IMG/VR virus record: IMGVR_UViG_3300025871_000002 | Reading direction: 5' to 3' (one strand) | DNA from: a virus | Length of the DNA: 34,702 nt | Part shown: positions 7,669 through 25,034 of the stretch, piece after piece | How the letters are laid out: each line of letters opens with the position of its first letter | Numbering within the stretch: position 1 is the stretch's first letter | Program-made: the position numbers and the translations under genes | The notes under the pieces: model-generated | Databases searched by the model: none | What the model saw: only the letters and a program-made list of their open reading frames with translations | What the model was told of the DNA's origin: nothing

Positions 7669-7675
7669 TGGTTTG

Positions 7676-7818: not shown

Positions 7819-7836
7819 TATTTTAAAAACCAGACG

Positions 7837-8173: not shown

Positions 8174-8198
8174 CAAACTTTAGCGGTTGTGGTATTTT
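8170..8198 (+). promoter_or_regulatory. Near-consensus sigma70-type promoter (TTGACA, 17-nt spacer, TGgTATTTT)
   Basis: ttgaca at 8170-8175, a 17-nt spacer, then an extended -10 with tg at 8190-8191 and tatttt at 8193-8198. It overlaps the stop codon of the preceding small ORF. Confidence 0.55.
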
Positions 8199-8237
8199 AG
8201 CGCTAATAGTCTGAGACACCTTTTTAGGAGAGTTTAG

Positions 8238-8267
8238 GACGCCGAACGAAAGTTGGCGTCTTTTTTT
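8238..8267 (+). terminator. Intrinsic-terminator-like hairpin plus T7 directly abutting the portal ATG
   Basis: gacgcc (8238-8243) pairs with ggcgtc (8255-8260), with two possible extra inner pairs. The loop is about 7 nt, and ttttttt follows at 8261-8267. The hairpin lies about 35-60 nt downstream of the predicted transcription start. Confidence 0.6.
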
Positions 8268-10082
8268 ATGGCTAACATCCGACAACAGATATTAGAACGA
8301 AAACAAGCGGCTTCCGATTACCTTTCCACTAAGCGGGATTTGTGGGATGAGGTGGAGCAGCTGTTCCACAACCAGCTGACCGATTCTATCTCCAAGAACA
8401 CCACCAAGTCCAATGTCTTTGATCCTAAACTAACTACCCTTATCCTGGAGAGAGGCTACCGGGTGATGGCGCAACTGGCCACCGGCAAGGTCAAGCCGAT
8501 CTCGACTAACGATATTGGTTCGGGCCAACTGATGAACTTGATTTTGGACAAGTGGGTTATCCCCAACGCCAACGCCCAGTTTGACCTTTTAACCAAGTTT
8601 CGGATGACGGACATCTATTCCAACCTTTACGGCAACTTCTTTGCTTTAGTCGATATGGATGTCAAGAAAAACGGCTATGTCGGCCCGGATCTGTGGCTTT
8701 TGAACATCCGGGACGTCTTTCCGCAAGTGGGGGCGGTCTCGGTTGAGGATAGCGATTACATCATTGTCCGCACCTGGAAGCCTCTCTCTTTCTTTGAGAA
8801 CCTAAAAGGGCAACGGGGGTACAAGAACATCACCGAGATTGTTACCAGGTTAAAAGGCAAGACCGGGGACAAGGAAGCGGTTGATTCGGACAGCAAGGGC
8901 CAACGGGCCGAGGATCAGTACCCGACAGGCGAGGCGGCCAAGAACGGCGGCTTTTTCGAGGTTCTGACCCAGTATGAAGGCGACCGGTGGGTTGATTACT
9001 GCGTTGAGGCCGATATGGAGTTTAGAGATCAAGCCAATCCGCACGAGAACGGCGAACTGCCGGTGGTTTGCAAGTATTCGATACCGCTTTTGGATGATTT
9101 TATGGGGATGGGCGACTTCGAGCGGGGGAAGACGATGCAGATGGTGGTCAATTCGGTCTGGAACCTTTACTTAGATGCGGTCAAGATGTCCATCTTCCCG
9201 CCGATTCTAATTAACAAGGACAATTTAGCTTCGGAATCCTCAATCCAGTGGGGGGCGGCGGCCAAGTGGCTGGTCAGGGGCCAGATTAACAACGCCATCT
9301 CGCCGGTTCAGCTCAATCCCCAAGGAATCCAAACCTTCAATAACACTTACCAGGTCGCTTCTTCGGCGATCCTCAATATGTTCGGGACCACCGATACTTC
9401 GGTAACCCAGCAAACCGAGGTGGGCTACGGCAAGACGCCTAAGGCGCTTCAGATGCAGCAGAACCGGGAGAATACCCGGGATAACGCCGACCGCTTCTAT
9501 ATGGAGATGTTTGTCAAAAAAGTGATGAAGAAGATGGTCAACCTGCTTTCCAAGAAGCAAAGCCGGGCGATTACCATTAGGCTTTTCGGGGATGAGATTG
9601 AGCAACTAAAGAGAAACTACCCGGAGATAGAGGAGATGTACAGCCAGGAAAGCGGCAAACTATCTATTCCCAAAAGCAAAACCGGTTCGGTTCTTTACGA
9701 TTACGAGATTGTCAGCGGTTCCACTTATGCTTCGGACCAACAGGCCCAGCAGCAGAACTTAGCCATGTTGATGGAGATGTTTATGAAAGCCCAGACTCCC
9801 AACGGCAACTGGCTGATGCAGACGCTTCAGGAACAGGGGTACACTTTGAAATTTGGGGAATTGTTTAAGCGGATCGTCTCCAACTCCGGAATACAGGACT
9901 GGGACAAGATTTTAGAGGAGATGACCGACCAGGAGAAATCAGAACAGATATTAGGGGCCGACCGGATGAAATTCGAGCAGGCGTTGATGCAGGCGCAGGG
10001 GATGAACCAGATACCGGCCCAACAACCGATGCCGGAGCCGATGCCCGGGCAGATGCCGCCGGAAGGAGGGATAATTGGATAA
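8268..10082 (+). CDS. Portal protein (604 aa)
   Basis: Assigned by size, position between terminase and scaffold/capsid, and a Gln/Pro/Met-rich C-terminal tail. ATG 8268 is preferred over the track's TTG 8253, which lies inside the hairpin. Confidence 0.72.
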   Translation: MANIRQQILERKQAASDYLSTKRDLWDEVEQLFHNQLTDSISKNTTKSNVFDPKLTTLILERGYRVMAQLATGKVKPISTNDIGSGQLMNLILDKWVIPNANAQFDLLTKFRMTDIYSNLYGNFFALVDMDVKKNGYVGPDLWLLNIRDVFPQVGAVSVEDSDYIIVRTWKPLSFFENLKGQRGYKNITEIVTRLKGKTGDKEAVDSDSKGQRAEDQYPTGEAAKNGGFFEVLTQYEGDRWVDYCVEADMEFRDQANPHENGELPVVCKYSIPLLDDFMGMGDFERGKTMQMVVNSVWNLYLDAVKMSIFPPILINKDNLASESSIQWGAAAKWLVRGQINNAISPVQLNPQGIQTFNNTYQVASSAILNMFGTTDTSVTQQTEVGYGKTPKALQMQQNRENTRDNADRFYMEMFVKKVMKKMVNLLSKKQSRAITIRLFGDEIEQLKRNYPEIEEMYSQESGKLSIPKSKTGSVLYDYEIVSGSTYASDQQAQQQNLAMLMEMFMKAQTPNGNWLMQTLQEQGYTLKFGELFKRIVSNSGIQDWDKILEEMTDQEKSEQILGADRMKFEQALMQAQGMNQIPAQQPMPEPMPGQMPPEGGIIG

Positions 10083-10395
10083 ATCAGCCCTTAGACCGGA
10101 AACCTTTTTGGCCAATATGCCGTCGATGGCAGCCGAACAGGAAGCGGCCAAGAAGGGAGCAACGGAAGAAGAAGTCGCCTTAGCCAATATGGGCAAGACG
10201 CACGGTTGGCGGGTTTTGAGAGAATACATCGGGAAAGTGGAAGAGGATTTGGACAACAAGAACGCCGAGGCAATCGCCGGAGGCAAAGCACTAGAGGAAA
10301 TTGGTTTAAACACAATCGTTATTAACCTAACCAAAGAAATTATTAAAAAGGTCCTTGACAAAGTTGAGGATGCCAAGGAAGCGTGTGAAAAATGA
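10075..10395 (+). CDS. Hypothetical head-module protein (106 aa), TTG start
   Basis: Strong SD aggagg (10064-10069) lies 5 nt before TTG 10075. Acidic helical protein. Confidence 0.55.
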   Translation: MDKSALRPETFLANMPSMAAEQEAAKKGATEEEVALANMGKTHGWRVLREYIGKVEEDLDNKNAEAIAGGKALEEIGLNTIVINLTKEIIKKVLDKVEDAKEACEK

Positions 10396-10633
10396 AGAGA
10401 AAATCAAGGAAGAACTGGAGGCACCCCTTGAAGAAATCCGCGACCTTAGCCGGCCGGATTTTCGCTACGATCCGCCGCCTAATCACGACTGGCGGCAACA
10501 AGGTTATTACTTGGTTTGTCATTCGTGCGAAATCCAGCATGCGGTCTGGATTGGCCCGGAAAAGATCATGGTCGGGATTGACGAAAAAGGGGCGCCGATC
10601 CTCAAAACACGCCGGGAATTGAAGATGGCGTAA
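10385..10633 (+). CDS. Small hypothetical protein (about 82 aa)
   Basis: The frame of track ORF 10355..10633 looks protein-like (PPPNHDWRQQGYYLVCHSCEIQHAVWIGPEKIMVGIDEKG). GTG 10385 after aaggaa is proposed as the start, which is uncertain. The overlapping K/R-rich frame 10392..10622 is rejected. Confidence 0.45.
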   Translation: MKNEEKIKEELEAPLEEIRDLSRPDFRYDPPPNHDWRQQGYYLVCHSCEIQHAVWIGPEKIMVGIDEKGAPILKTRRELKMA

Positions 10634-10742
10634 ATGTTTGCTTTGGGCAAGAGTTTGGGCCACCTCCCTTCGCTTGCCCGGAGCAAGCATTTAGGCTTGG
10701 GTATTCTCACATGGCCAAATCGGTGTGATGAAAGGAGATCGT

Positions 10743-11528
10743 ATGAAAAACGATCAAGCGGCGTTAAAAGATAAGGGTGAGGCAGAAAACATCCTTGGTA
10801 CCCCGCCAGTATCAGAACCGGAATTAAAAGAACCGGAAGCGGCTGGGGAAGCAGCCGAGACCGAGATTGAAGCGACGGCCGAAGTCAAGGAGGAGGCAGC
10901 CGAAACAGCGGAGAGTCCTAAAAAAGGCGCTCAAGCCCGGATTAGGGAACTGCACGCCAAAGCCGAAAAGGCGGAGGAACGGGCAACCGAGGCGGAAACC
11001 AAAGCACAGTCTTTGGCGGAAAAGCTTGCGGATCTCACGGGTTCAGTAGAACCCCAGGTGCCACCGGCACCATATTTTCCGCAAGCAGAGCCGGGGGCAG
11101 AGATTACCAGCGAGCAGTACAAACAGGATGTTTTGCAAACAGCGGACGCTCTTGTTCAACTGCGGGTTAAGCAATCAGAAGCCGTTAACCGGATAAACAA
11201 CGAAGCCAACGAGGTGCTGAGGAAATACCCTCAGCTTGATCCGGAAAACGACGCTTTTGACAAGGAACTCTCCGACACGGTGAGTGAGGCGACGGAAGCC
11301 TACGTTAAGGCCAATCCGTATTCCGCATCAGTCAAAAAGTTTGTGGCTAAACTGATGAAACCCTACGAAAGGGCAGTCGCCAGGGAGGTCAGCCAGCAGT
11401 CGGAGAACATTGCCAAGCAGGTATCCCAAACCGCCATGAGGCCGACCCAAGTTGCCACAACAGAGAAGGAAGACAAAGATTTAACGATCGAGGAATTGGA
11501 AAAAAAGTACGGGATCGTTCATTCATAG
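10743..11528 (+). CDS. Scaffolding protein (261 aa)
   Basis: Highly acidic Ala/Glu-rich coiled-coil sequence directly upstream of the major capsid gene. SD aaaggag lies 5 nt before ATG 10743. Confidence 0.65.
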   Translation: MKNDQAALKDKGEAENILGTPPVSEPELKEPEAAGEAAETEIEATAEVKEEAAETAESPKKGAQARIRELHAKAEKAEERATEAETKAQSLAEKLADLTGSVEPQVPPAPYFPQAEPGAEITSEQYKQDVLQTADALVQLRVKQSEAVNRINNEANEVLRKYPQLDPENDAFDKELSDTVSEATEAYVKANPYSASVKKFVAKLMKPYERAVAREVSQQSENIAKQVSQTAMRPTQVATTEKEDKDLTIEELEKKYGIVHS

Positions 11529-11574
11529 GACTTGGCAAATGGACAGATTTGTCCGGAAAGGAGTGTGATATAAC

Positions 11575-12498
11575 ATGGCAACAGACAACCTAACAAGTAC
11601 TCTTACGCCGGCAATGTCGACTTACTACGAAAAGGTTTTCTTAGCAAAGGCGCAGTACAAACTGGTCCTTGAAGAAGGAGGCCAAGTAAGAACGCATCCG
11701 GCTAATGAGGGTAAGACAGTCAACTTTACCAGAATGTTACCATCGGCGATTGACGCTTCGCCCTTGACTGAATCCTGCAACCCGCCGGCTTGTATCATCA
11801 GCGCCTGTACGGTAGCGATGACGCTGGCTGAGTATGGAAAAACTTTCCGAAGCTCAAAGTTTCTTTCTTTGACTTCGATTGACTCCAAACAAAAGGAATT
11901 CATTGAAGTGGCCGGTCAATCAATGGGGGAAACTCTGAACCGTGTCGTCCGAGAGGAACTCCGCAACGGCACCGCCTTCAGACCGAATGGTCATACGGTG
12001 GCGACCATGGCGGCAGGGGATGTCCTTTCCGCTTCAGCGATCAGGGAGATGGTTAAGACTTTAGAGTTAGCTTACGCATTACCCTATCCTGACGGGACGT
12101 TCATGGGAAAGACCAATCCTTACTCCAAATTCAGTTTGCTCGGAGATTCGACTTGGATTAACGCCAAGACCTACTCCGATGTCAAAGACCTGTATATGGG
12201 GGAGATGGGAGAACTGTACCAAGTCCGATGGCTGAACAACTTGGACGAGCAGGCCGTTTGCGAGGCAACTTCAACGGCAGCTTCCACGGTGGCGGTTTAC
12301 TACACCTATGTTCATGGAGACCAATCCTTTGGTGTCTATGACCTGGCAGGTGACCAGCCGAAGTTGTACATTCTTCCCAACGTGGTGGACTCCGGTTCAC
12401 CTGCGGGCAGAATCAGCTTAATCTCTTGGGCAGGTTCTTACGTAGCTAAATTGTTGAACGACGAATGGGTATTGGCTTGCAGATTTACAGCGGCATAA
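11575..12498 (+). CDS. Major capsid protein (HK97-fold type, 307 aa)
   Basis: Positioned after the scaffold gene. The N-terminus TSTLTPAMSTYYEKVFLAKAQYKLVLEEGGQVRTHPANEGKTVNFTRM is typical of the podovirus and N4-gp56-like capsid family (recollection). A strong hairpin follows. Confidence 0.8.
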   Translation: MATDNLTSTLTPAMSTYYEKVFLAKAQYKLVLEEGGQVRTHPANEGKTVNFTRMLPSAIDASPLTESCNPPACIISACTVAMTLAEYGKTFRSSKFLSLTSIDSKQKEFIEVAGQSMGETLNRVVREELRNGTAFRPNGHTVATMAAGDVLSASAIREMVKTLELAYALPYPDGTFMGKTNPYSKFSLLGDSTWINAKTYSDVKDLYMGEMGELYQVRWLNNLDEQAVCEATSTAASTVAVYYTYVHGDQSFGVYDLAGDQPKLYILPNVVDSGSPAGRISLISWAGSYVAKLLNDEWVLACRFTAA

Positions 12499-12512: not shown

Positions 12513-12543
12513 GTTGGGGGAAAGCCAGATAATTTCCCCCAAC
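12513..12543 (+). terminator. Perfect 11-bp stem hairpin after the capsid gene (no U-tract)
   Basis: gttgggggaaa / 9-nt loop gccagataa / tttcccccaac. Probably a partial terminator or an mRNA-stabilising 3' hairpin. Confidence 0.45.
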
Positions 12544-12559: not shown

Positions 12560-12832
12560 ATGGATATTGACTACGGCAGAAAATTCGATTTAGAAGAAAT
12601 CTATTTACAAATTAAGCAGGCAAAATCCAGCGACGAAAAGAAGCATTGGGAAAAACTGTTTCAGCGGGTATTGAACGAGAGCCGGGCAACGGGAAAATTA
12701 AGGGAAAATTTAATCCGGGCCGTTCGGGGCAACGACCGGCGGGCAGTCAGGTATTATTCGCAAAAGCTGGAGAACCTGCAACAGGAGCAATATGGCGGAC
12801 ACTATTTTCAGAAGTCGCCTAGAGAAGACTGA
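12560..12832 (+). CDS. Hypothetical protein (90 aa)
   Basis: ORF in the head module. Basic and helical. Confidence 0.5.
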   Translation: MDIDYGRKFDLEEIYLQIKQAKSSDEKKHWEKLFQRVLNESRATGKLRENLIRAVRGNDRRAVRYYSQKLENLQQEQYGGHYFQKSPRED

Positions 12833-13226
12833 AACTAAACCTCCGGAAGAACCGGTGGCAAAAATTAGCCCCCTTCCGGGCGGCGGGGACAAGGTGGAAG
12901 TGCCTTACCTTGATTACGAAAGGCAACACGGCAAGCCTTACCTGGTGGAGTACTTTAAATTGGGCGAACTTTGGAATGATAAGGTCGGCGGATTTGAGGA
13001 GGAAATCGCCCAAATTGAAGGTTATATCAGGGAACAGATTGAACAGGGCGAGATTGAGAACTCCCTGGAAGCCGCCAACTACCTTTTAAAGGCGATCGAG
13101 AAGGAGTGCAACGCCGACAAAGGGGAAAGATTAATTAATAAAATCGCCAAGATGGCCGCCTATGCCGATTTTTTAAGAAAAACAAAGGAAATTGATAAGA
13201 ATTCTTTTAAGTATGGTCAAAAATGA
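12792..13226 (+). CDS. Hypothetical head-module protein (144 aa)
   Basis: ORF with an ATGA overlap to the next gene. The start is uncertain because it overlaps the previous ORF by 41 nt. Confidence 0.55.
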   Translation: MADTIFRSRLEKTETKPPEEPVAKISPLPGGGDKVEVPYLDYERQHGKPYLVEYFKLGELWNDKVGGFEEEIAQIEGYIREQIEQGEIENSLEAANYLLKAIEKECNADKGERLINKIAKMAAYADFLRKTKEIDKNSFKYGQK

Positions 13227-13915
13227 CAATTCCGGATAGAAAAAATTTACCAAGCATCCATAAAAGCGAACAGCGGAGTAATTATTTAAAATTTTTTATG
13301 GACGATCTACAAAAAAGGGTAATTGAGCTATCCTTTAAACACCAGAAACCTCATATAGGAAGTTGTCTGACCTCTGTCGGCTTAATCGACAAAATTTATT
13401 CCGTTAAGAAAAAAGACGAACCGTTTATCCTCAGTAACGGCCATGCCGGACTGGCTTTGTTCTGCGTTCTGGAGAAATACGAAAAAAAGGATGCCGAAAA
13501 GTTGTGCCTCAAATACGGCACCCATCCCCGGAGGTGCCTCAAAGATGGGATTTGGGTGACCACTGGCAGTCTGGGGCATGGTCTGCCAATCGCCGTCGGC
13601 ATGGCTTTGGCCAATCCTAAAAGGAATGTCTATGTTCTAACCTCGGACGGCGAGATGGCCGAAGGGAGTATGTGGGAAGCCTTGAGAATTGCCGCCGACC
13701 TGAGATTGGAGAATTTGAGAATTACGGTTGACGCCAACGGCCACGGCGCATATTCCCTGATCGACGCCGACCTGCTGGATTTAAGGATGAATTACTTTTA
13801 TCCGAGTTTAGTTATCAAAACCAATACTTATGACTACCCCGAATACTTGAATGGCATTAAGGGCCACTACACGGTCTTAGACGAGGCGAAATATGAGGAG
13901 GTGATGAAATGTTAG
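13223..13915 (+). CDS. Transketolase-like ThDP enzyme, N-terminal (PP-binding) subunit
   Basis: HIGSCLTS, FILSNGHAGLALF, TTGSLGHGLPIAVGMALA, and the ThDP motif LTSDGEMAEGSMWEALRIAADLRLENLRITVDANG (GDG-X-N type). Confidence 0.85.
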   Translation: MTIPDRKNLPSIHKSEQRSNYLKFFMDDLQKRVIELSFKHQKPHIGSCLTSVGLIDKIYSVKKKDEPFILSNGHAGLALFCVLEKYEKKDAEKLCLKYGTHPRRCLKDGIWVTTGSLGHGLPIAVGMALANPKRNVYVLTSDGEMAEGSMWEALRIAADLRLENLRITVDANGHGAYSLIDADLLDLRMNYFYPSLVIKTNTYDYPEYLNGIKGHYTVLDEAKYEEVMKC

Positions 13916-14082
13916 AAAAAGAACAACATTTTAAGACTGCCTGCGGGGTTTGCGGAAAAGATTTTGATAAACCGCAGTTTCCCGAACAGCAACCCCAACA
14001 GGCCAATGTTACCCAGGTGATTATTTGCGAACCGTGTCTAATGAAACACGAAAAGGGCGAAGGAGAGATAAATGGACATTAA
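13909..14082 (+). CDS. Possible 57-aa zinc-ribbon protein between the two ThDP-enzyme subunits (below the track cutoff)
   Basis: ATG 13909 overlaps the upstream stop. Translation: MLEKEQHFKTACGVCGKDFDKPQFPEQQPQQANVTQVIICEPCLMKHEKGEGEINGH (CxxC...CxxC). The stop at 14080-14082 overlaps the next gene by 11 nt. Confidence 0.4.
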   Translation: MLEKEQHFKTACGVCGKDFDKPQFPEQQPQQANVTQVIICEPCLMKHEKGEGEINGH

Positions 14083-14596
14083 AGAGAGAATTAAAAACTA
14101 CCCCAGACATCCCAGCCAGCGGGGGGAGTTCGGCTACCAACTCTATAAGCATATGGCCGAGAACAAGGATATTTGGCTTCTTACCGGGGACTTGGGATTT
14201 GGAATGTTCGACCCCCACCGGGACGATTTCCCCGATCGGTTTGTCAACTGCGGGGCGGCCGAGCAAGCGATGATGGGGATTGCCGTCGGCCTGGCCCTGG
14301 AGGGCAAGATTCCCTTTGTTTTTTCCATTACCAACTTTGTCCTTTACCGGCCTTATGAGGTAATAAGGAACTACATTAACGAGGAGCGGATTCCGGTCAA
14401 GATTGTCGCTTCCGGTCGGGGTAAAGACTACGAAGATGACGGCTTTACTCACATGTCGACTGACGCAAAGTTGGTTTTACAAGCCTTTCCCAACATCCAC
14501 CAGTATTGGCCAAAGGATAATCAGGAAGTGGGGCGGAATTTGAGGGAGATGATTCTGAATGGCGATCCCAGTTTTATTAGTTTAACCAGAAAATGA
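14072..14596 (+). CDS. Transketolase-like ThDP enzyme, pyrimidine-binding subunit (truncated, 174 aa)
   Basis: FPDRFVNCGAAEQAMMGIAVGLALEGKIPFVFSITNFVLYRPYEVIRN matches the f.n.GIAEQ.mvg.A.GlA..G..Pf motif, including the cofactor-activating Glu. It is too short to contain the usual C-terminal domain. Confidence 0.8.
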   Translation: MDIKERIKNYPRHPSQRGEFGYQLYKHMAENKDIWLLTGDLGFGMFDPHRDDFPDRFVNCGAAEQAMMGIAVGLALEGKIPFVFSITNFVLYRPYEVIRNYINEERIPVKIVASGRGKDYEDDGFTHMSTDAKLVLQAFPNIHQYWPKDNQEVGRNLREMILNGDPSFISLTRK

Positions 14597-15441
14597 AAGA
14601 GATAATCGCCGGAGCCGGGGGATTCCTCGGTTCTAATTTAAGAAGGCATTTTGGAAACAAGGGCAAAGAAGTGGTTGTCCTTCCGTCCGAGATGTTACTA
14701 GACATCGGCGGGATGCACGAACTTCTAAAGGTCAATGAACCCTACCGCTTTTATTACCTGGCCGCCTACGGCAACCTCCGGGGGCAAAACGACATCCAGG
14801 AGATTTATCGGGCAATCATTAACAAACTTCTTAATGTCCTACAAGCCACCGAGGGGACGGATTGCCGGTCTTTTATCACCGCCGGTTCAACTTCGGAATA
14901 CGGCAATAAAGATGTTCCCATGACCGAGGACATGATTTTGGAACCGGACGGCTTTTACGGAGCCGCCAAGGCGGGGGCGACCCAACTGGCTCTGGTCTGG
15001 GCGAAAAAGACCGATACGCCGACGATTGTTTTCAGACCCAGTTCCATGACCGGCGTCGGGGAACAGCCAATCCACCTGATTCCGACACTTATCAGGAGTT
15101 GTCTTTTAAAAGAACCAATCCCGTTCGTCGCCGAGGCCTACCACGACTATATTAACGTTTTAGACGTCTGCTCGGCTCTGGAGATATTGGCCGACAAAGC
15201 CAAAGAGGTTTCCGGGCAAGTCTTTAACGTCGGCATCGGCTCGCAAGTCAGCAATGAGGAGATTAAAAATATGCTGGAGAGCATTACCGGCCAAAAGGCG
15301 GTTATCAACAAAGCAGTCCGTTACAAGGCCGAATACGCCAGCGAGGTCTGGATTGCCGATTCAACCAAGATGAGGAATTTAGGCTGGAAACCGAACTGGA
15401 CGATTATGCAGACATTAAAAGAAATGGTAAGGTCGGCATGA
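14593..15441 (+). CDS. NAD(P)-dependent sugar epimerase/dehydratase (extended SDR)
   Basis: GAGGFLGS Rossmann motif, STSEYG, and catalytic YGAAK (YxxxK). Confidence 0.85.
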   Translation: MKEIIAGAGGFLGSNLRRHFGNKGKEVVVLPSEMLLDIGGMHELLKVNEPYRFYYLAAYGNLRGQNDIQEIYRAIINKLLNVLQATEGTDCRSFITAGSTSEYGNKDVPMTEDMILEPDGFYGAAKAGATQLALVWAKKTDTPTIVFRPSSMTGVGEQPIHLIPTLIRSCLLKEPIPFVAEAYHDYINVLDVCSALEILADKAKEVSGQVFNVGIGSQVSNEEIKNMLESITGQKAVINKAVRYKAEYASEVWIADSTKMRNLGWKPNWTIMQTLKEMVRSA

Positions 15442-16142
15442 GGGAGGTTTGTTTTTTTACAACTTATGACGAACGGGCGAAGGAAATGGGGCAGGGAATG
15501 GCCAACAGCGTTAAAAAGTTCTACCCCGATATTCCGATGGAGGTTACGGTGATTGGAACAAAGGACAAAGGGGGACATTTTGACTTGATGAACTTTTGTT
15601 ACAGTTATTTAAAAAAGGGATTGGAACTCTTAGACCAATACCAAAGGATAATTCATATTGATCCCGATTCGGTCATGTGTAACCTTTGCCCCGATTTATT
15701 TGGTGATTACGAATTGGGAGTAGTCAAAAATAACGTTCCTTGTGGTCCGGAATACGGCGGGATGGCGAAAGATGTTTACGTCAACGCCGGGTTGACAGTC
15801 TGCACCAGCAAAGAGGTTTGGCGGGATCGTATCAATGAGTTTAGCAAACGGAACAATACCCGCTGGGAAACCCTGAACGAGCAGAACGCGCTTAATTATA
15901 TTTACCACACCACCAGCCACAAAACCAAACTTCTGGAGTTTGACGACCGGACCTACGGGATTTCCAGCCTGGACTTTTACAAAGATATGTTTTTGAGAGA
16001 TAATGAGCTTTATCTACCCAACAACAAAAAGGTTTGTGTTTTCCACGCCGCCGGCGTTTACTGGAAAACCAACAACAAGATTAACTTTGATTTTATTGAA
16101 AACGAAGAAGCCAGAGAAAGGATTATCAGTTATACCTTATGA
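15438..16142 (+). CDS. Putative GT-A fold (GT8-like) glycosyltransferase
   Basis: RIIHIDPDSVM is a DxD motif. It shares layout with 16792..17565 (VCFFTTYDER versus VVFFTIVDDR; VFHAAG versus CYHHAKG). Confidence 0.55.
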   Translation: MREVCFFTTYDERAKEMGQGMANSVKKFYPDIPMEVTVIGTKDKGGHFDLMNFCYSYLKKGLELLDQYQRIIHIDPDSVMCNLCPDLFGDYELGVVKNNVPCGPEYGGMAKDVYVNAGLTVCTSKEVWRDRINEFSKRNNTRWETLNEQNALNYIYHTTSHKTKLLEFDDRTYGISSLDFYKDMFLRDNELYLPNNKKVCVFHAAGVYWKTNNKINFDFIENEEARERIISYTL

Positions 16143-16160
16143 AACAAGATAGGAGGACAA

Positions 16161-16802
16161 ATGCTTAAAGCGCTTTATTATCCCGATATGCCATTTGATA
16201 CCCTGTTCATACCATACATCTACAAGGAGATTTACCTTGAGGGGGTTTACATTGACATTATGAACAGCCTGAAAAACACGGAGAACAATGTCATTGTCGA
16301 CATCGGGGCAAATATCGGCTGCACGGTCCAGTATTTCCGCGATTACGCTAAGGTCTATGCGGTTGAACCGGCAAAGGAACACTTTGAAGCCTTAAAGAAA
16401 AACAAGGATTTCAATAAATGGGACAATGTTGAGGTCTTTAATTTTGCCATTGCCGGCAAAGACGGCGAGATGACCCTCCATACCCACGACGGCAACCGGA
16501 CCTGCCATTCGCTGACCAACGATTATAAACAAGGCGGATATACGGTCAAAACCAAAACCCTGGAGACGTTTTTCAAGGAAAACAATATCAAGAAGGTGGA
16601 CTTTATGAAGTTTGACGTCGAGGGGGCGGAGGAGAGTATCTTATGCGCTCCGGAATTCAGCAATGTTACCCATATTATCAAGAAGATGATGGTGGAGTTC
16701 CACTATCCCAACTTTATGGACATTGTTAATCATTTAATCGGCTTAGGGTACAAAGCAAAAAGGTATCCGTCAAGCGCGGTAATCTTTTTATTTGAACAAT
16801 GA
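16161..16802 (+). CDS. FkbM-family SAM-dependent methyltransferase
   Basis: VIVDIGANIGCTVQYF (SAM motif I) and DFMKFDVEGAEESIL (the FkbM signature lKiDvEGaE). Confidence 0.8.
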   Translation: MLKALYYPDMPFDTLFIPYIYKEIYLEGVYIDIMNSLKNTENNVIVDIGANIGCTVQYFRDYAKVYAVEPAKEHFEALKKNKDFNKWDNVEVFNFAIAGKDGEMTLHTHDGNRTCHSLTNDYKQGGYTVKTKTLETFFKENNIKKVDFMKFDVEGAEESILCAPEFSNVTHIIKKMMVEFHYPNFMDIVNHLIGLGYKAKRYPSSAVIFLFEQ

Positions 16803-17565
16803 ATATAACGATAAAGATATGAGCGAATCTGTTGTCTTTTTTACGATTGTCGATGACCGCTACTATTATCCGGTGGGAACACCGAAACTGATTTCGTCTT
16901 TTAAGAAGTTCCACCGCGAGATTGAGCTGGTTGTTTTCAGGCAGGATTTGATTGACCGGGTGTTCAAAGAAAAAGGGGTCAACTTTTACACCGCCAAGCC
17001 GACATTCGCCAAGCTACTGGCTCCCCATTATGACCTGGTGGTCAACATTGACGCCGACAGCGTTATCCTGGGGCGGTTGGAGGCGGTTTTAGCACAAGAC
17101 TACGAGGTCGGGGCGGCCTGGAACTTCAACGATTACGAGAATATGAGCGTGGAGAATGTCAGCGAGGAGATGTTTGTCCAGGCGGGGCTGGTGGCCTCCC
17201 GCAACAAGCTCTTTTGGGACATCTGGGAGCATGAAAATCTGAAGGCAATGAAATACCCGGCCAGGGAGAATAGCACCCTGAACCTTATCTGGTACAACGA
17301 CCCCGATGTTTCCAAGATGAAACGCAAGATATTCGACAAGGACAAGGACTACTACGGTTGTAAGAGCCTAAATCGGGAAAAAGAGTTCTACCTGGGAAAC
17401 GGCCGGGTGATGTGCCGAGGAGAACAGGTTTTGTGCTACCACCACGCCAAAGGGGGCCATTTGCCTAAGCTGGTTTACGAGACGATGGGTTTTCCTAACG
17501 AGGTAGTTGATTTTATGAATTTTGTTAGCAGTTATGGAACAAGCGAACGCTACGCCGCAATTTAG
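16792..17565 (+). CDS. Putative GT-A fold (GT8-like) glycosyltransferase, paralog of 15438..16142
   Basis: LVVNIDADSVILG is a DxD motif. See the paralog comparison under 15438..16142. Confidence 0.5.
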   Translation: MNNEYNDKDMSESVVFFTIVDDRYYYPVGTPKLISSFKKFHREIELVVFRQDLIDRVFKEKGVNFYTAKPTFAKLLAPHYDLVVNIDADSVILGRLEAVLAQDYEVGAAWNFNDYENMSVENVSEEMFVQAGLVASRNKLFWDIWEHENLKAMKYPARENSTLNLIWYNDPDVSKMKRKIFDKDKDYYGCKSLNREKEFYLGNGRVMCRGEQVLCYHHAKGGHLPKLVYETMGFPNEVVDFMNFVSSYGTSERYAAI

Positions 17566-18336
17566 ATGAGAGACTATTATTCTGTGATGATGCCGCCTTA
17601 CGAACCCACCAGTGGGGGGATTAAGGTGATGTGGGGACTCTACGGTGCCTTGTTGGCTAAAGGCCAGATTACTTACGCCAACGCCACCTCGGAAAACAAG
17701 AACTTCACCGCTATCTACCCGGAGATTTATCCGAATACCAACCCTGCCGGGGCGAAAACAGTTGTCAGGTATATTTTAAGGGAGCCGGGGACGATGGCTT
17801 TGTATGGAGTTCCTGGTCCAACAGCCTTTGACCCTAAAGACAAGATTTACGTTTTTAGCCGTCTTTACGATACTTTCGGGGTAGACGACGACCACATTCT
17901 TTTTTTACCGGTAATTGACACAAACTTGTTTTACGACAAAGGGCGGAAGAGAACCAAGACTTGTTTTTATGTCGGCCACGGGCAGGAAACCGAACACCCG
18001 GACGACTGGCTGGAATTGAGCCGGGAGATTATCAGCAACCAATCACTTTTAGCAGACACGCTTAACGAGTGCGAAGTAATGCACTCTTTTGATCCGGTTT
18101 CGGCGATGATGGAAGTCGCCAGGCTTTGCGGTTGCCGGGTGGTGATTTCCCCCTCGCTTTACACCAGGGAGCAGTTTGCCAAATATGAACCGGGGATGAA
18201 CGGTATCAGTTGGGGGCCGGGGGAGTCGGTGCCTTTGGACAGCCGGGAGTTCCGCCGCCACTATTTGGGACTGCGCCAGCAGTTCTGGGACAAGTTAGAT
18301 TTGTTTATTAAGGAGACAAAAAATGAAACAGATTAA
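17566..18336 (+). CDS. Hypothetical protein of the sugar cassette, possibly a GT-B-like glycosyltransferase
   Basis: PTSGGIKVMWGLYGALLAKG resembles the N-terminal GG...L...G motif of GT-B enzymes. Assigned mainly from cassette context, so this is weak. Confidence 0.4.
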   Translation: MRDYYSVMMPPYEPTSGGIKVMWGLYGALLAKGQITYANATSENKNFTAIYPEIYPNTNPAGAKTVVRYILREPGTMALYGVPGPTAFDPKDKIYVFSRLYDTFGVDDDHILFLPVIDTNLFYDKGRKRTKTCFYVGHGQETEHPDDWLELSREIISNQSLLADTLNECEVMHSFDPVSAMMEVARLCGCRVVISPSLYTREQFAKYEPGMNGISWGPGESVPLDSREFRRHYLGLRQQFWDKLDLFIKETKNETD

Positions 18337-19414
18337 AGTTTTCGCTTTCCCCAGCCACTCAGCCAAAGGCCACTCCAGCGGGGTTGACTACGCCCGGGTA
18401 AACCAGCCGATGAAGTTTTTAAACGGCTACAAAGATAAGGACACCGAGTTTAAAGTCGACCTCTGGTGCGGCGACCCGATTAGTTTGCAAGCCTGGTCCT
18501 CTTTAGTTAAAAAATACGACCTGGTTTACTTTAATTACACGGTCAACGACTGGGCGTTTGCGGCGATGGGGTCGATGGTCAGAAAAGAGGGAAAGAAAAT
18601 GATAATGGATTTGGACGACGCCCTGTGGCTGATGAATAGCGACAACGTCGTCTATGAAACCTACAAAAAGGGTTCTAAGGGCTTGAATATAGTGACGGAC
18701 ATCATCAATGAGGTTGACGCCGTCACCTGCACCAATAGTTATTTGAGGAACGTTATCGCTAATTATACCCACAAGCGCCACGACCAAATCGGGATAATGC
18801 CCAATTACATTGACCTGGAACTTTACAATTCAATCCCCAAGCCGAGGGAGTCACCCTTTATCAACATCGTTCACTACGGCAGCAGCACCCACTTCCGCGA
18901 CCTAAAGTCTTTCGGCTTTGTCGGGGGGGTGGACAGGATAATGGCCGACTACCCCAACGCCAGGTTTATCACCATCGGTTCTTTCTTTTCCGACTTTAAA
19001 ATGAAATGGGGCGAACGGTACGAGGAGGAGTTTGGCCATCTTGAATTTATTAAATGGGCGAAAGAGAGATTTCCGGAGACAATGGAGAAAACCGATATTT
19101 TTGTAGCCCCCCTGGAGGAGAATAATTATAACAAGGCCAAATCGGACATTAAAAGGCTGGAGGTGGCCACCGCCAAAAAACCGTTTATCGGCCAGGACAT
19201 CAGGCAATATCGGGAATCAATTACCGACGGGGTTGACGGGATGTTGGCCGGGAACGCGGACGACTGGTATTTGAAGATAAAAACGCTGATTGACGATCCG
19301 GAATTAAGGAAAAAAATAGGGGAGGAGGGTTACAAGCGGATGGCCAGGGACAAGCAGATGAAAGACCATATCCAGGAATACGCCGACTTTTTCAAAAAGG
19401 TCTTGACAAAATAA
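18323..19414 (+). CDS. Family 1/4-type (GT-B) glycosyltransferase
   Basis: C-terminal region FVAPLEENNYNKAKSDIKRLEVATAKKPFIG...ITDGVDGMLAGNADDWYLKIKTLIDDPELRKKIGEEGYKR matches the 'glycosyl transferases group 1' pattern. Confidence 0.8.
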   Translation: MKQIKVFAFPSHSAKGHSSGVDYARVNQPMKFLNGYKDKDTEFKVDLWCGDPISLQAWSSLVKKYDLVYFNYTVNDWAFAAMGSMVRKEGKKMIMDLDDALWLMNSDNVVYETYKKGSKGLNIVTDIINEVDAVTCTNSYLRNVIANYTHKRHDQIGIMPNYIDLELYNSIPKPRESPFINIVHYGSSTHFRDLKSFGFVGGVDRIMADYPNARFITIGSFFSDFKMKWGERYEEEFGHLEFIKWAKERFPETMEKTDIFVAPLEENNYNKAKSDIKRLEVATAKKPFIGQDIRQYRESITDGVDGMLAGNADDWYLKIKTLIDDPELRKKIGEEGYKRMARDKQMKDHIQEYADFFKKVLTK

Positions 19415-19467
19415 ATATAATTTGGTATTCTTTTCTTGTCAGTAATTCGTCCATGGCGACGAAATAT

Positions 19468-19504
19468 GACCCTAAACCCGAAAGGGAAGGGTCTTTTTTG
19501 TTTT
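19468..19504 (+). terminator. Rho-independent terminator closing the sugar cassette
   Basis: gaccct aaa ccc gaaa ggg a agggtc, followed by ttttttgtttt. Confidence 0.75.
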
Positions 19505-19517: not shown

Positions 19518-19667
19518 ATGAGCCCTTTCGTTTCGGAAGCACAAAGGCGGTATCTTTGGGCGAAACACCCGGAACTTGCCAAAAAGTGGACCGCCGAATA
19601 CGGATCAAAAATAGTTCCCAAGAAAAAAGTTATTAAAAAGAAAAAGTTTAAAAAGACAAGGAGGTAA
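19518..19667 (+). CDS. Small basic protein (49 aa, below the track cutoff)
   Basis: Perfect SD aaggaggt lies 6-7 nt before ATG 19518. Translation: MSPFVSEAQRRYLWAKHPELAKKWTAEYGSKIVPKKKVIKKKKFKKTRR. Its stop lies within the SD of the next gene. Confidence 0.55.
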   Translation: MSPFVSEAQRRYLWAKHPELAKKWTAEYGSKIVPKKKVIKKKKFKKTRR

Positions 19668-19669: not shown

Positions 19670-20914
19670 ATGGCAAACCCTACACCAGTTCCGACACCAA
19701 CTTATACACCATCTTATGCGTCAAGTATTCCAAGAGGCGATGTTTTAGGCGCCCAACAAGTTGCCGATTGGAATACCCAATGGAACCAAATTTGGAACCA
19801 GGCCTGGAATGCTGGATACAATCGTTCTTCTATGCCCTCGGTTGACCCGTCTTTCCAAAGCGCGGTTAATCAGGGGTATTCAGCCGGTTTGTCGGCGGCT
19901 CCAGCCATAAAAGACACAGGAGGGGCGAAGCAAACTACATCTTACAATCTGTCATCTCAACCCTCTCAGTCTTACAACCCGTCAAATCAACCTTCTGGCC
20001 CATCGGCCGAAGACTTAGCTAGGCAACAAGCGGAAGCGGCCTTGAACCAAGGTTATAACGACTATTTTGCCCAGCTTGACAAACTTCTTAACGAAGGCCT
20101 ACCGGGACAAAAAAGCGCCCAAGAGCAAATCGCCCAGGAGCAGTACCAACAAGGCTTAAATACTTTAGGACTACAGCAAACCCAGGGATTGCAAACTTTG
20201 GGGACACAAAGAACCGAGGCACAGCAAAACCAGCAAAAAACCCTAAAAGACCTCGGCGCTAACCTAAGGAACGCTTTTATGGCAGGGAACATCTTTCTTG
20301 GCGCCAGGGGAGCAGGCGATAGTTCGGCGGCAAACCAATACGCCTATGCCCTAACCAAACTGGCTAACCAGCAAAGAGGCGACATAATGACCAAAACCCA
20401 GAACATTATGCGAGACATCCAGAACAAAGAGGACAACCTTAAAAACATTTACGATACCGAGGTTAGAAATCTGGAGTCGCAAAAGAACGCCAAAATGGCG
20501 GAGATTGCCAAGTGGTTCTATGACGCCCAGAATACCATAAGTTTGCAAAAAGGCGCGGCTCAAAAGGAAAGATCGCAGCAATTATTGAATATAGCGGTGA
20601 GCAACCTGCAAATGATTCAGCAGGAGGCGGCCAACCAAAGATCGCTTCTTGAACAATGGGTGGCAAACAAGGCGACTGACCTTCAGGGATTGTTAAGAAA
20701 TATGGCGGCGGTAACTTCGGGAACTTACAATTACCCGACGACAAACCCACTTACCGGTCCTATGACTGTCAATCCCGAAGGCGGGGTTAATATTCCGAAA
20801 TATGTGCCGTCAACGTCAACAGAGGAGAAAAAGTCGATCTTTAACCAGCCATATAGTTACATTTCAGGGGCAGCTAATCCAACCAATTATTGGACAACAT
20901 TATTAGGGAGGTAA
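19670..20914 (+). CDS. Virion structural or internal protein (414 aa) with a Pro/Thr/Ser/Asn/Gln-rich N-terminus and a Gln-rich coiled coil
   Basis: Starts MANPTPVPTPTYTPSYASS..., with SYNLSSQPSQSYNPSNQPSGPS, then long Q-rich heptad-like segments. First gene of the tail module. Confidence 0.55.
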   Translation: MANPTPVPTPTYTPSYASSIPRGDVLGAQQVADWNTQWNQIWNQAWNAGYNRSSMPSVDPSFQSAVNQGYSAGLSAAPAIKDTGGAKQTTSYNLSSQPSQSYNPSNQPSGPSAEDLARQQAEAALNQGYNDYFAQLDKLLNEGLPGQKSAQEQIAQEQYQQGLNTLGLQQTQGLQTLGTQRTEAQQNQQKTLKDLGANLRNAFMAGNIFLGARGAGDSSAANQYAYALTKLANQQRGDIMTKTQNIMRDIQNKEDNLKNIYDTEVRNLESQKNAKMAEIAKWFYDAQNTISLQKGAAQKERSQQLLNIAVSNLQMIQQEAANQRSLLEQWVANKATDLQGLLRNMAAVTSGTYNYPTTNPLTGPMTVNPEGGVNIPKYVPSTSTEEKKSIFNQPYSYISGAANPTNYWTTLLGR

Positions 20915-20917: not shown

Positions 20918-23900
20918 ATGGCCTCACTTAGGGACCTGGCGGAAAGGATAAAGGCTTACTTTAACCCAACTTCAACCGTTGGACAAAATTTCTGGTCAAC
21001 ACCGGTGGCGCAGAGGTTAGGCCAGGCCCAACAAATAACCGAACCGATTTTGAAAACGGTACAGACAATCAATCAATACAACCCCTATGCCAGGATTGTA
21101 GAACCTATCGAGATGGGACTAGCCAAACAAATCGGGAGACCATTGGTAAATTACGGTAAGTTTATTGGGGCAGGTTTAATTCAACAACCTATTTTGGCAG
21201 CAACCAAAGGCAAAATAAATGTTCCCTTTTACTCGCCGCAGGAATTCGAAAAAGTAGCCACTCCTAAACAAGCGGCCCGGGAAGGAGTAAAGAACATTAC
21301 TGGAGCAGCATTATCGGCGACAAGTCTTTTCAGTCCAACAGCTATCGCTTATCGTGCTTTCCCCGCCATTTACGGAATTGGCTCGAAGCAAGGAATTGGC
21401 AAATCGATTGAAGAATTTGCTGGGCCAAGTAGGCTAATAGAAACACTTACCAAGAGTCCAGGGTTTGAAGAAACAAAAGTAGGGAAAGCGATTGACACAG
21501 CAGAGTTGTTAATTGGTCTAGTTCTTAATCGAGGGATTGATGACATGGTTATTACTGCTATCAAAAACAGGTTTGGTGCTTCTAGCAGGCTAACAAAGTT
21601 AATGGAAAAAGCACCGGCAATGGGGTTGACCGATGTTTCGCCGAATGTCTTTAAGATTCACCCGGAAGATCAGGACGTTATGGAAAGGTTCTATGATGCC
21701 GTTAAATTTAAAGGGAAAAGCAAACAACCATTGGGAGATTTAGGGAGGAGTGCTCAAGATATTGCCGAACACTATTTTGGGGCAAAGTGGCGCAATGTTT
21801 CCAATAAAAAGTTAGCCGATGCTTTTGCTTGGGCCTTGGATGTTAATCGGAATATACCCTTAGTGTCTAGGGGAAAACTCCCCAAACTTGGAATAATGGG
21901 ATTTACAGAAGGCCCCGTAGGTCGAGAAGGCCAAGCAATATCAAAGCTAGGATTAGGAGTTGGACAAGAAGTTCCCACCAAAATCGTTTCATCTGATTTT
22001 ACCAAAGTAGAAAATAAACCCCGATTAGGTATGCAATCGGAAATAGAATTACAAAAAGCCAAGGTTTTACCCGATCTTTCAGCACCGCCCAAATCATTAC
22101 CTGAATCACAAATAGGCCAAATAGAACGTAAGCCTTCATTACAAGATCAGCAAGCATTAAATGATATTATAGCACAAGGAAACAAACAAATCGGTTCGGC
22201 TACTGAGCAAGGCGGAAAATCACTTCGTCAGATGTTTAGCGACTTTTATACCCAATGGATTGACCGATATAACCCGATTGTTCAAGCCTCAAGAAAGGCG
22301 AAAGAAACCTTAAAAATTAAAGGGGCAGAGTTAAGGCCGGAATACGATCCGGAATATTTGGTAAGAAGGTTAACCGGAGCAGGGGGGATTGCCGACTATC
22401 GCTTCCAGACAGAACTTAACCCTATAATCAAGTCGATTGACCAAGCGGGGATTCCCAAGCTGGACCTAGACACTTACTTGGCTAACAAAAGGATTGCCGG
22501 GTTTGGAGAGATTGGCCGAAAGATCAAAGGAGCCGACCCGGAGCAGGCGAGACAGATTGTAACAGCGATTGAGGCAAAATATCCCCAAATCGGCCAGATT
22601 GCCCAAAGCCTCTACGACTACCAGAACAAAGGCTTTCAGGAGATGATCGACGCCGGTTTCCTTTCCGAAGATACCGCTAAACTTATTCGCCAGCAAAATC
22701 CCGACTATTCGCCGTTAAAGAGAGTCATGGACGAAGTCAACGACTATCTTGGGTTACCGACCAGAAAGACAATGCAAGGAACGCAACCGATCTTCAAGAT
22801 CAAGGGTTCGGAAAGAAAGATCGAATCTCCACTAGAATCAATTATCGGAAATACTTTTAGTCAAAGGGCGGCGATAGAGAAGAATCGGGTCGCCAGGTCG
22901 ATTGTCGGGCTTCAGAATATAGCACCAGAATTAGGTTTCAAGAAAGTCGGGTCGGCAGGATCGGACACCATCACGGTTTGGCAAAACGGGAAGAAAGAGT
23001 ATTGGCGGGTCGGGAGCGAGATTGCTGAGGTAGCTAAAGGAGTAAACGAGGAGGCGATGAATCTGGTTCTTAAAATCATCAAAGCCCCTGCTTCGATACT
23101 AAGACAGGGAGCGACCGGTCGTAACCCGGAGTTTATGATTCCTAATGTCGTTAGAGATCAACTGGACGCCGGGATTTCTTCAAAATACGGTTATATTCCT
23201 TTTGTTGATTATGTAAGCGGTCTTTGGTCTATGTTAACTAATGATGAGGTTTACCAAAAATGGCAGAAGTCGGGAGCAAAGATTGATTTAGGCGAATTAT
23301 CGGGCAAAAAGTCAATTAAGGCCATGTTTGACGAGAAAACCAGCAAAAAGAATTTGTTTAGTTGGCTTAGTTCAGGATTGAATATTCTCGGTAGGTATTC
23401 GGAACAGCCGACAAGGGTTGGATTGTTCAAAAAAGCCTACGAAAAAACCGGTAACGAGTTATTGGCGGCGGTGGAGTCGAGGGACGCTACCGTTGACTTT
23501 GCCCGCATGGGGTCAAAAATGAAAGTAGCCAACTCAATTATTCCTTTCCTTAACGTTGGCGTTCAAGGATTCGACAAACTTATCCGCGCCGTCAAAGACA
23601 ACCCCTTTAGAGTTCTAATAACGGCGGGTATTTATGGAGTATTACCCCAGATAACCTCAACCATTTACAACCTGCAAAACTTCCCGGAGGAATACAAAGA
23701 GATTCCCCAATATGAGAAAGACAGCAACTTTGTCTTGGTTAAAGGGAGAAACAGCAAGGGAACCGTCGATTACATTACTATTCCCAAAGGGAACATTGTT
23801 CCGATCGTTGCTAATCCCGTCCAATCATTTTTAGATTATCTTTACAAAACCGACAGCCAGTCTTTTTATAACATGGCTATGAACGTTATGTCCGACACGC

Positions 23901-25014: not shown

Positions 25015-25034
25015 GTGGTTTAAAAGGAGGAAAT

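Follow-up and report, generated by a model that had tools for sequence, protein, structure and literature searches.

Why does a phage of some 35 kb keep a whole set of sugar enzymes among its head genes, and onto what does it transfer the product? The IMG/VR virus record IMGVR_UViG_3300025871_000002, a stretch of 34,702 nucleotides that was analysed at its full length and is called the window in the following, raises this question with nine contiguous open reading frames (ORFs) on the + strand at 13223-19414, which follow the portal, scaffold and capsid genes and are co-oriented with them. A preliminary description made from the DNA letters had read this block as a soluble cassette and a candidate for the glycosylation of virion proteins. 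Using profile, structure and neighbourhood searches we come to the view that the chances are even that the cassette is a late-expressed cytoplasmic unit for glycan synthesis and part of the head-morphogenesis operon, and we judge it equally balanced whether it builds a methylated glycan on the virion particle, which is still the most likely of the readings compared here.

Results and Discussion

A sugar cassette kept in the head operon of a phage clade

The nine ORFs were found as a coupled block just as described before, with ATGA overlaps at 13223, 14593 and 15438, other overlaps of 7-14 nt and a single gap of 18 nt, and the cassette genes are translationally coupled (Table 1). They encode a thiamine diphosphate (ThDP) enzyme split into a ThDP-binding (PP) and a pyrimidine-binding (Pyr) subunit, an extended short-chain dehydrogenase/reductase (SDR), an FkbM methyltransferase and four transferases of glycosyltransferase (GT) type. 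Wherever an ORF could be assigned, the Pfam result is in line with those of PHROGs and NCBIfam, and together with AlphaFold models and Foldseek searches all enzyme assignments proposed earlier were either confirmed or strengthened, the products being sugar enzymes by profile as well as by structure. The statement that no product carries a transmembrane segment also held, as no membrane segment is predicted in any of them with a 19-residue Kyte-Doolittle window (maximum mean of all products 1.56).

The contexts of relatives were collected by protein look-ups and by capsid-anchored IMG/VR searches. The relatives form one phage clade with a capsid identity of 55-88% and a constant order of portal, scaffold and capsid gene, and of the 22 loci whose sequence continues for 9.5 kb or more beyond the capsid gene, 21 contain the cassette, always at the same place in the head operon. 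Its core order in the clade is SDR, the PP gene (TK_N), the Pyr gene (TK_pyr), FkbM in one to three copies, GT-A2, the small GT-B and GT4. GT-A1 is confined to a subclade while GT-A2 and the small GT-B are core members, and in the subclade of the window the SDR has moved behind the ThDP genes. The search for this gene order thus succeeded in IMG/VR, and among GenBank phages neither a cultured relative nor an annotated precedent was found: blastn of the cassette gave no cultured phage with shared DNA, and no cultured member of the clade appeared in this search or in tblastn searches with GT-A1 and the small GT-B, which had no match in 50,697 phage records. Metagenomic homologues number 30 for GT-A1, 624 for the small GT-B and at least 978 for the Pyr subunit; those listed are mostly unnamed metagenomic proteins, many of them encoded on contigs with a length of 33-46 kb. 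When the concatenated ThDP subunits are arranged in a rough neighbour-joining tree, the phage sequences form a single clade, which suggests a single acquisition of the ThDP genes followed by vertical inheritance.

Downstream of the last cassette gene we could recognise the terminator that had been reported at 19468-19504, a hairpin with a T-run which the consensus terminator scan did not report and which has equivalents 3' of the GT4 gene in the relatives L004 and L006; it is predicted to close a transcription unit made of head genes and cassette. Shortly before it lies a predicted sigma-70-like promoter that overlaps the end of the GT4 gene and whose position is kept in L004 and L006. Promoter and terminator follow each other within about 35 nt in the window (19403-19504), in L004 (~15171-15258) and in L006 (~14473-14560), and the arrangement is conserved among the relatives though the nucleotides themselves diverge. 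With a promoter that leads directly into a terminator before the ejection and tail genes begin, the layout resembles, by analogy, antitermination control of the lambda PR'/tR' type. On the other side of the cassette a perfect stem-loop without a T-run is located just 3' of the capsid gene stop (12498), and may be an attenuator or an RNA-stability element that lowers downstream expression relative to the capsid protein. It is followed by the gene of a 144-aa protein without a Pfam or PHROG match, which in most relatives stands directly upstream of either fibre genes or the cassette.

In relatives, fibre-like proteins are encoded directly upstream of the cassette, with collagen-like G-x-T repeats in L004 and repeated N-A-S together with CBM96 in L006. 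These fibre genes are missing from the window phage and from several relatives, all of which keep the cassette. In the window a trace of their loss can be seen in the PP subunit, as the first 17 residues of its ORF (MTIPDRKNLPSIHKSEQ) align with the N-terminal end of a small fibre or anchor protein of the head in relatives, whose gene precedes the long fibre-like genes there (window 13223-13297 compared to L012 7211-7504, L014 1909-2091 and L009 9426-9716). Apparently a deletion of the head-fibre module fused the start of a fibre gene to the ThDP gene, and the PP subunit probably started ancestrally at the internal ATG of position 13298. The idea that the glycan is accepted by head fibres alone was therefore rejected, and because the cassette outlived the fibres the acceptor would have to be a virion component found in most of the clade, for example the capsid protein or the 144-aa protein, with head fibres being modified as well where they are present.

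The following pathway would fit these genes. The extended SDR would convert a nucleotide-sugar of the host into a keto intermediate by 4-oxidation, epimerisation or dehydration, and the two-subunit ThDP enzyme would add or rearrange two carbons, so that the resulting sugar donor is branched or has a longer chain. A short oligosaccharide would then be assembled on a virion protein by GT4 and the small GT-B-like enzyme, together with one or two of the retaining GT-A enzymes of GT8-like fold, and the FkbM methyltransferase would O-methylate the glycan. Which substrates are used, what the ThDP enzyme does chemically, in which order the enzymes work and what the acceptor is are all inferred here. 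A glycan on the virion is the best reading because the cassette is retained in the head operon throughout the clade, shares its terminator boundary with the head genes, and encodes enzymes whose folds resemble those acting on capsids or proteins: among the structural neighbours, A64R, R699, glycogenin, 8xsg and GtfC/Gtf3 are cytoplasmic enzymes with viral capsids or proteins as their glycosylation targets, and the small GT-B model resembles enzymes extending protein-linked glycans. It is further supported by the fibres adjoining the cassette in relatives, which are rich in plausible glycosylation motifs, by the precedent of mycobacteriophages and by a cassette at the same position in another podovirus (MW202801.1). 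The earlier proposal had deduced a virion acceptor from the operon position in this one genome, and retention across the clade is the stronger evidence for a role linked to the virion.

The podovirus just mentioned, Podoviridae sp. ctQWt234 from Manatee Spring (MW202801.1, 40 kb), is unrelated to the clade of the window phage. A different sugar-type cassette directly follows its capsid gene (L171 8115-13146) and is annotated with an Fe-S oxidoreductase, two glycosyltransferases, a PhyH dioxygenase, a DREV methyltransferase and a NodB-like deacetylase.

Table 1: Features of the window, with the evidence or family match for each assignment.
Feature	Position	Strand	Basis or remark
O-like replication initiator	562-1050	+	
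Glucosaminidase-like lysin	1246-1875	+	
Small terminase subunit	5140-5526	+	
Large terminase subunit	5501-6811	+	
SU10-type portal	8253-10082	+	
Major head (capsid) protein	11575-12498	+	phrog_1357
Perfect 11-bp stem-loop, GTTGGGGGAAA / TTTCCCCCAAC	12513-12543	+	Read from sequence
144-aa protein	12792-13226	+	Stop overlaps first cassette start codon
ThDP-binding (PP) subunit	13223-13915	+	Pfam Transketolase_N, E 8e-12
57-aa ORF, CxxC..CxxC	13909-14082	+	No family match
Pyrimidine-binding (Pyr) subunit	14072-14596	+	Pfam Transket_pyr, E 3e-23
Extended SDR	14593-15441	+	Pfam Epimerase / GDP_Man_Dehyd, E 5e-26; phrog_540, 6e-30
GT-A1, GT8-like, retaining (predicted)	15438-16142	+	AlphaFold model and Foldseek; no Pfam match
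FkbM-family methyltransferase, S-adenosylmethionine (SAM)-dependent	16161-16802	+	Pfam Methyltransf_21, E 2e-16; TIGR01444, 1e-26
GT-A2, paralogue of GT-A1	16792-17565	+	BLASTP and hhalign to GT-A1; no Pfam match
Small (reduced) GT-B-like transferase, 256 aa	17566-18336	+	AlphaFold and Foldseek; no Pfam match
GT4-type GT-B glycosyltransferase, last cassette gene	18323-19414	+	Pfam Glyco_trans_1_4, E 1e-8; phrog_7162, 4e-26
Sigma-70-like promoter: TTGACA, 17-nt spacer, TATTCT, TG-extended	19403-19431	+	Predicted
Intrinsic-terminator-like hairpin GACCCT..AGGGTC and TTTTTTGTTTT	19468-19504	+	Sequence reading and folding
414-aa protein	19670-20914	+	
1342-aa protein with LPD38 domain	20918-24946	+	
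SU10_adaptor-like protein, first recognisable tail-side gene	24975-25712	+	
C39-like peptidase	29148-30134	+	
Dam methylase	30462-30932	+	
726-aa protein, repair-exonuclease match and LAGLIDADG domain	31356-33536	+	

Glycosyltransferases

The two GT-A proteins had been described as paralogues with a DxD motif, and this could be substantiated. They share 27% identity (BLASTP, E 2e-11) with an hhalign probability of 97.9%, and their DxD motifs align (HIDPDS with NIDADS), as does FHAAG with HHAKG. In GT-A1 the residues D75, D77 and H203, which correspond to the DxD motif and downstream His expected to bind Mn2+ and the nucleotide-sugar, are invariant across 22 homologues, and the AlphaFold model built from these 22 homologues has a pLDDT of 93.3. 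Foldseek against the PDB listed WbbM on top (2.5e-8), mimivirus R699, glycogenin, LgtC and PBCV-1 A64R, and the Foldseek probability was 1.00 for WbbM, glycogenin, LgtC and 3tzt, a GT8 protein (E 2.5e-8 to 1e-6). At the thresholds used neither GT-A1 nor GT-A2 matched a Pfam, NCBIfam or PHROG profile, the GT8 profile included. As GT8-type profiles are not matched, the pair is GT8-like by predicted fold and a separate family by sequence.

For the small GT-B, which had been called only a possible GT-B protein, the model itself is good (pLDDT 93.3) while its matches are only moderate, the best being the Actinobacillus minor glucosyltransferase 8xsh/8xsg with E 1.3e-4 and TM 0.57-0.64. Further matches are GtfC/Gtf3 and, weakly, the methylmannose-polysaccharide mannosyltransferase 7qsg (E 1.5e-3), and in BFVD giant-virus glycosyltransferases were matched. 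The protein shows a D-x6-E motif (DPVSAMME) that resembles the EX7E motif of GT4 enzymes. Taken together the model makes it, with moderate confidence, a reduced transferase of GT-B fold. For the GT4 enzyme the 50,697 phage records gave matches of 23-28% identity in phages of Streptomyces, of Arthrobacter and in others.

The SDR and the split ThDP enzyme

The SDR carries the motifs GxGGFLG, STSEYG and YxxxK, and its closest solved structures are the UDP-GlcA 4-epimerase MoeE5 (6kv9) and a dTDP-glucose 4,6-dehydratase (6bi4). We therefore assign it to the level of a probable nucleotide-sugar 4-epimerase or 4,6-dehydratase-like enzyme.

In the PP subunit the ThDP motif (SDGE...N) is present, and the Pyr subunit has the cofactor-activating Glu in GAAEQ. 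Closest solved structures are both chains of a split-chain transketolase, 6yak for PP (3e-14) and 6yaj for Pyr (9e-19). The PP subunit covers only positions 57-183 of the 334 positions of the Transketolase_N profile, Pyr stops at residue 174 of the Transket_pyr profile without any further domain, and there is no Transketolase_C. In addition, a presumed substrate-site His is replaced by Arg (SGRG) and the region expected to carry another His is absent, and all NCBIfam transketolase models score far under their curated cut-offs. Because of the missing domains, the replaced His and the failed cut-offs, the pair is predicted to be transketolase/DXS-like and not a strict transketolase. In tblastn searches against phages the Pyr subunit found only distant matches (~30% identity), which lie on faecal phage contigs without annotation and on a small number of other records.

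The small 57-aa ORF between both subunits is not conserved among the relatives. Cys-rich ORFs similar to homing endonucleases of the HNH type are present in L011 (9490-10023), L004 (4136-4768), L009 (8148-8783) and L016 (2413-3027) at varying sites, either after the capsid gene or, in L011, between the ThDP subunits. The 57-aa ORF occupies the same ThDP junction as the ORF of L011 and has the CxxCGKxF start in common with it, and may thus be the remnant of a decayed HNH homing endonuclease.

A transketolase-like enzyme brings up another product. The cassette might make something that stays soluble in the cytoplasm, be it an oligo- or polysaccharide with methyl groups or a small molecule that is glycosylated and helps the infection, or it might be a sugar-phosphate metabolic module. 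Mycobacterial methylmannose and methylglucose polysaccharides are the natural analogy here. All cassette products are soluble, the methyltransferases are multiplied in relatives, and the small GT-B model matches 7qsg, though this match is weak. Furthermore, Arg17 and Arg173 of the Pyr subunit align in the 6yaj alignment with positions which we take to be the phosphate-binding arginines of transketolase, and viral 'tktA (transketolase)' is already counted in viromics surveys as an auxiliary gene of carbon fixation and the pentose-phosphate pathway (PMC12482060). However, an NDP-sugar-type SDR always accompanies the ThDP genes, as do transferases and methyltransferases, the neighbourhoods examined for their Pfam content showed no gene of the pentose-phosphate pathway, and the fixed place in the head operon is hard to square with a purely metabolic role, making a soluble product or metabolic module improbable. 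A literature search for transketolase-type enzymes in the context of glycans, O-antigens or phage capsids gave nothing relevant.

Cellular homologues and the host envelope

A scan of 185,579 species genomes revealed the triad of SDR, TK_N and TK_pyr in many cellular metagenome-assembled genomes (MAGs), with TK_pyr being 44-59% identical. They belong mostly to Patescibacteria (Levy-, Woese-, Davies-, Collier-, Roizman- and Gottesmanbacteria) and Omnitrophota. On the contigs from Levybacteria and Collierbacteria the triad is surrounded by genes for GT2, GT4, methyltransferases, a Wzx-like flippase and GT-C-like membrane enzymes (GT87/PMT-like), which marks these loci as envelope-glycan loci. The GT-A and small GT-B families of the phage were not detected on long cellular contigs carrying the triad; they were detected on contigs that belong to the phage clade or are short and phage-like. 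Within the scanned triad contigs, GT-A2-like genes occur only on two MAG-binned contigs of the phage clade (L083, L089), weakly in Omnitrophota (L036), and on three short marine contigs that are possibly viral (L096, L097, L099). Homologues found only in envelope loci had been considered as a possible outcome, and the closest ones are instead located in phages.

One locus connects both worlds. On a 487-kb contig of Candidatus Roizmanbacteria UBA1450 (L098), positions 6502-12419 encode in this order an integrase, SDR, TK_N, a TylF-like methyltransferase, TK_pyr, a small ORF and Terminase_3, apparently a prophage in a genome of the candidate phyla radiation (CPR). In the rough neighbour-joining tree this prophage supplies the sister group to the ThDP genes of the podophages, which we take as a lead towards a host among the Patescibacteria. 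Weak tblastn matches had also placed TerL-like genes beside the triad in L021, L028 and L098, which a single-sequence hidden Markov model did not confirm; of these three, Pfam confirmed Terminase_3 and integrase beside the triad for L098 only.

Very large glycan islands that include the SDR and split-ThDP triad were observed on a 108.8-kb ENA scaffold (L019) and a 117.7-kb Logan contig (L020). They also encode multi-domain GT2/GT4/methyltransferase proteins, a small cytidylyltransferase, a radical SAM enzyme, a carbamoyltransferase and an aminotransferase.

Several observations weigh against a glycan on the virion, and some of them speak at the same time for remodelling of the host envelope, where the enzymes would modify lipid-linked precursors at the cytoplasmic face of the membrane and host flippases and ligases would export the product. 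The effect could be masking of the receptor, leading to superinfection exclusion or to less loss of progeny on debris, or an altered cell surface. Lipid-linked intermediates at the inner membrane face are frequent substrates of soluble GT8 and GT4 enzymes, and WbbM and LgtC, which act on lipid-linked glycans without membrane segments, are among the best fold matches; the earlier conclusion from soluble enzymes to a soluble acceptor does not follow for this reason, as both are soluble or peripheral. The cellular triad is found in the loci with flippase and GT-C enzymes, the triad of the Roizmanbacteria prophage adjoins an integrase as is typical for conversion genes, and some JGI annotations label homologues 'O-antigen biosynthesis protein'. 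Other points bear on the virion reading only: no acceptor can be identified from sequence, which also limits the earlier deduction from operon position, the obvious acceptors (head fibres) were lost here while the cassette was kept, and no mycobacteriophage is matched by GT-A1, the small GT-B, GT4 or the Pyr subunit. The alignment of Arg17 and Arg173 leaves room for a sugar-phosphate instead of a nucleotide-sugar as ThDP substrate, and the small GT-B model resembles folds of the pyruvyltransferase type too; a transfer other than glycosyl, for example of a pyruvyl group, would be possible.

Against envelope remodelling stand the late head operon as location, instead of an early or moron position, the status of the cassette as a position-fixed core of the clade, unlike conversion genes which are typically patchy, and the GT-A and small GT-B families, which were not detected in the scanned cellular loci. 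Moreover, the scanned window ORFs, which include each distinct + strand ORF of at least 150 aa, contain no integrase or other lysogeny gene. All in all we hold remodelling of the envelope, and likewise the proposed effects on receptor or cell surface, for possible but rather unlikely. The special case of a serotype-converting moron had been doubted from the beginning and is indeed unlikely, considering the late-operon position, the missing lysogeny genes and that no membrane glycan partner of Gtr, Wzx or Wzy type is encoded among the scanned ORFs. The same ORFs lack exporter, priming transferase and nucleotidyltransferase domains, in agreement with the preliminary description.

Comparison with known systems

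The closest functional parallel to a glycan on the virion is found in mycobacteriophages. PMC11600133, citing Freeman et al. 2023, describes for cluster O phages that their capsid and tail tube are modified by three phage-encoded glycosyltransferases together with an O-methyltransferase, and virion glycosylation of Che8, Corndog and Myrna is ascribed to the same study in PMC11600133 and PMC12363180. Both systems have clustered phage-encoded glycosyltransferases together with a methyltransferase, here four contiguous transferase genes with one FkbM, and the modification of virion proteins in the cytoplasm late in infection would also be the same here as far as the genes can tell. In contrast, there is no detectable homology, and the glycosyltransferases Che8 gp110 and Corndog gp38 are unmatched in the search of 50,697 phage records. 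Our cassette adds tailoring by SDR and split ThDP enzyme and up to three FkbM enzymes in relatives, it is a core element of its clade and embedded in a podophage head operon, and the capsid protein has no C-terminal extension. The mycobacteriophage precedent cited before thus appears to hold as a functional analogy, but not as a homologous system.

Giant viruses (PBCV-1 with A64R, mimivirus with its fibril glycans and R699) also use soluble glycosyltransferases, sugar methylation and tailoring of nucleotide-sugars without host membrane machinery. The fold of GT-A1 is similar to A64R (2p72) and R699 (9dyt), and that of the small GT-B to the giant-virus glycosyltransferases in BFVD, whereas the sequence identity to these viral enzymes is only 10-14% (10-19% across the fold matches) and we deal here with a bacterial podophage of 35 kb. 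To our knowledge no giant-virus glycosylation system uses a ThDP enzyme.

With the split transketolase of Carboxydothermus hydrogenoformans (6yak/6yaj) and with DXP synthase the phage enzyme has separate PP and Pyr polypeptides, the ThDP motif and the activating Glu in common. It differs by its size (~205 and 170 aa compared to 309 and 341 aa), by the lack of Transketolase_C and part of the PP domain, by the exchange of His to Arg in SGRG, and by its linkage to SDR and glycan genes and not to the pentose-phosphate pathway. The chemistry proposed for it is known from YerE (yersiniose) and AviB1/AviB2 (avilamycin), where an NDP-4-keto sugar made by an SDR dehydratase receives two carbons through a ThDP enzyme. 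AviB1/B2 consists of two subunits like the phage enzyme, but belongs to the pyruvate-dehydrogenase E1 family and YerE to the acetolactate-synthase family, while the phage enzyme is transketolase/DXS-like. The envelope-glycan loci of Patescibacteria and Omnitrophota finally have the triad in the same gene order as most phage relatives, combined with their own flippase, GT-C, GT2 and other methyltransferases instead of the GT-A and small GT-B families of the phage. The most original element is the minimal module of split ThDP enzyme and SDR that is common to phages and to glycan loci of CPR and Omnitrophota.

The phage genome and DNA as a target

Every credible gene of the window lies on the + strand. 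The same genome was recovered at 33.7-34.7 kb from two JGI metagenomes and a Logan assembly (L001-L003), and because identical genes recur on contigs with different end points the window is probably a complete genome of ~34.7 kb that is circularly permuted or terminally redundant. It belongs to a virulent podophage with an SU10-like portal. A search of the window for tRNAs as clues to the host gave none.

Among the scanned ORFs no phage DNA polymerase and no thymidylate-synthase-like hydroxymethylase, kinase or other base-modification gene was found; of genes for replication or DNA modification only the O-like replication initiator and the Dam methylase were seen, and replication seems to be host-dependent. 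This gene content bears on glycosylation of the phage DNA, a base hypermodification for evading restriction that had been named as an alternative target. Glycosyltransferases of GT-A and GT-B fold from phages do glycosylate hydroxymethylated bases, and the T4 alpha-glucosyltransferase 1y8z is in the fold list of the small GT-B, although far down with E 0.13. Without a dCMP/dUMP hydroxymethylase for such bases and with the cassette placed in the late head operon, DNA as a target is very improbable, and we know of no DNA glycosylation system that features multiple FkbM methyltransferases and a sugar-tailoring module.

The gene at 19670 had been taken as the first tail gene. The 414-aa and 1342-aa products encoded at 19670 and 20918 look more like internal or ejection proteins, and the first recognisable tail-side gene is the SU10_adaptor-like one. 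Between the terminator and the 414-aa gene a very basic 49-aa ORF with a strong ribosome-binding site (19518-19667) is also called in the JGI contigs and partly conserved in L006; the preliminary description has no entry for it. Adjoining the glucosaminidase-like lysin, a 259-aa protein (1872-2651) pairs DUF7666 with an Imm5-like immunity-protein domain, which is unusual for an early region of a phage. In the 726-aa protein the exonuclease match is C-terminal and LAGLIDADG lies mid-protein (residues 428-477), so this protein could bear an intein or be fused to a homing endonuclease.

Conclusion

If the glycan is located on the virion, glycosylated virions would no longer be a matter of a few actinobacteriophages but also of a podophage clade that is widespread in the environment, and a phage of 35 kb would possess its own sugar-tailoring chemistry as it is found in giant viruses. 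A more far-reaching version, which we regard as doubtful, is that the podophage clade, being large, distributed worldwide and possibly infecting CPR bacteria, universally encodes an autonomous pathway for an undescribed ThDP-derived O-methylated sugar, with a two-carbon branch or an extended chain, that is shown on the capsid as a host-like coat for adhesion or evasion. The same sugar module would then serve the envelope glycans of CPR and Omnitrophota, the triad would represent a new nucleotide-sugar pathway, and many viral transketolases listed as auxiliary metabolic genes would be glycan genes.

As the phage ThDP genes always sit in glycan cassettes, some of the viral tktA genes assigned to carbon metabolism are probably misassigned glycan genes, and the context argues that this applies to many of them. 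The uncharacterised triad of SDR and minimal split ThDP enzyme is very common, with at least 978 homologues for one of its subunits, and its presence in a Roizmanbacteria prophage is a testable lead on the host of the clade. Its product, once worked out, would define a new sugar pathway.

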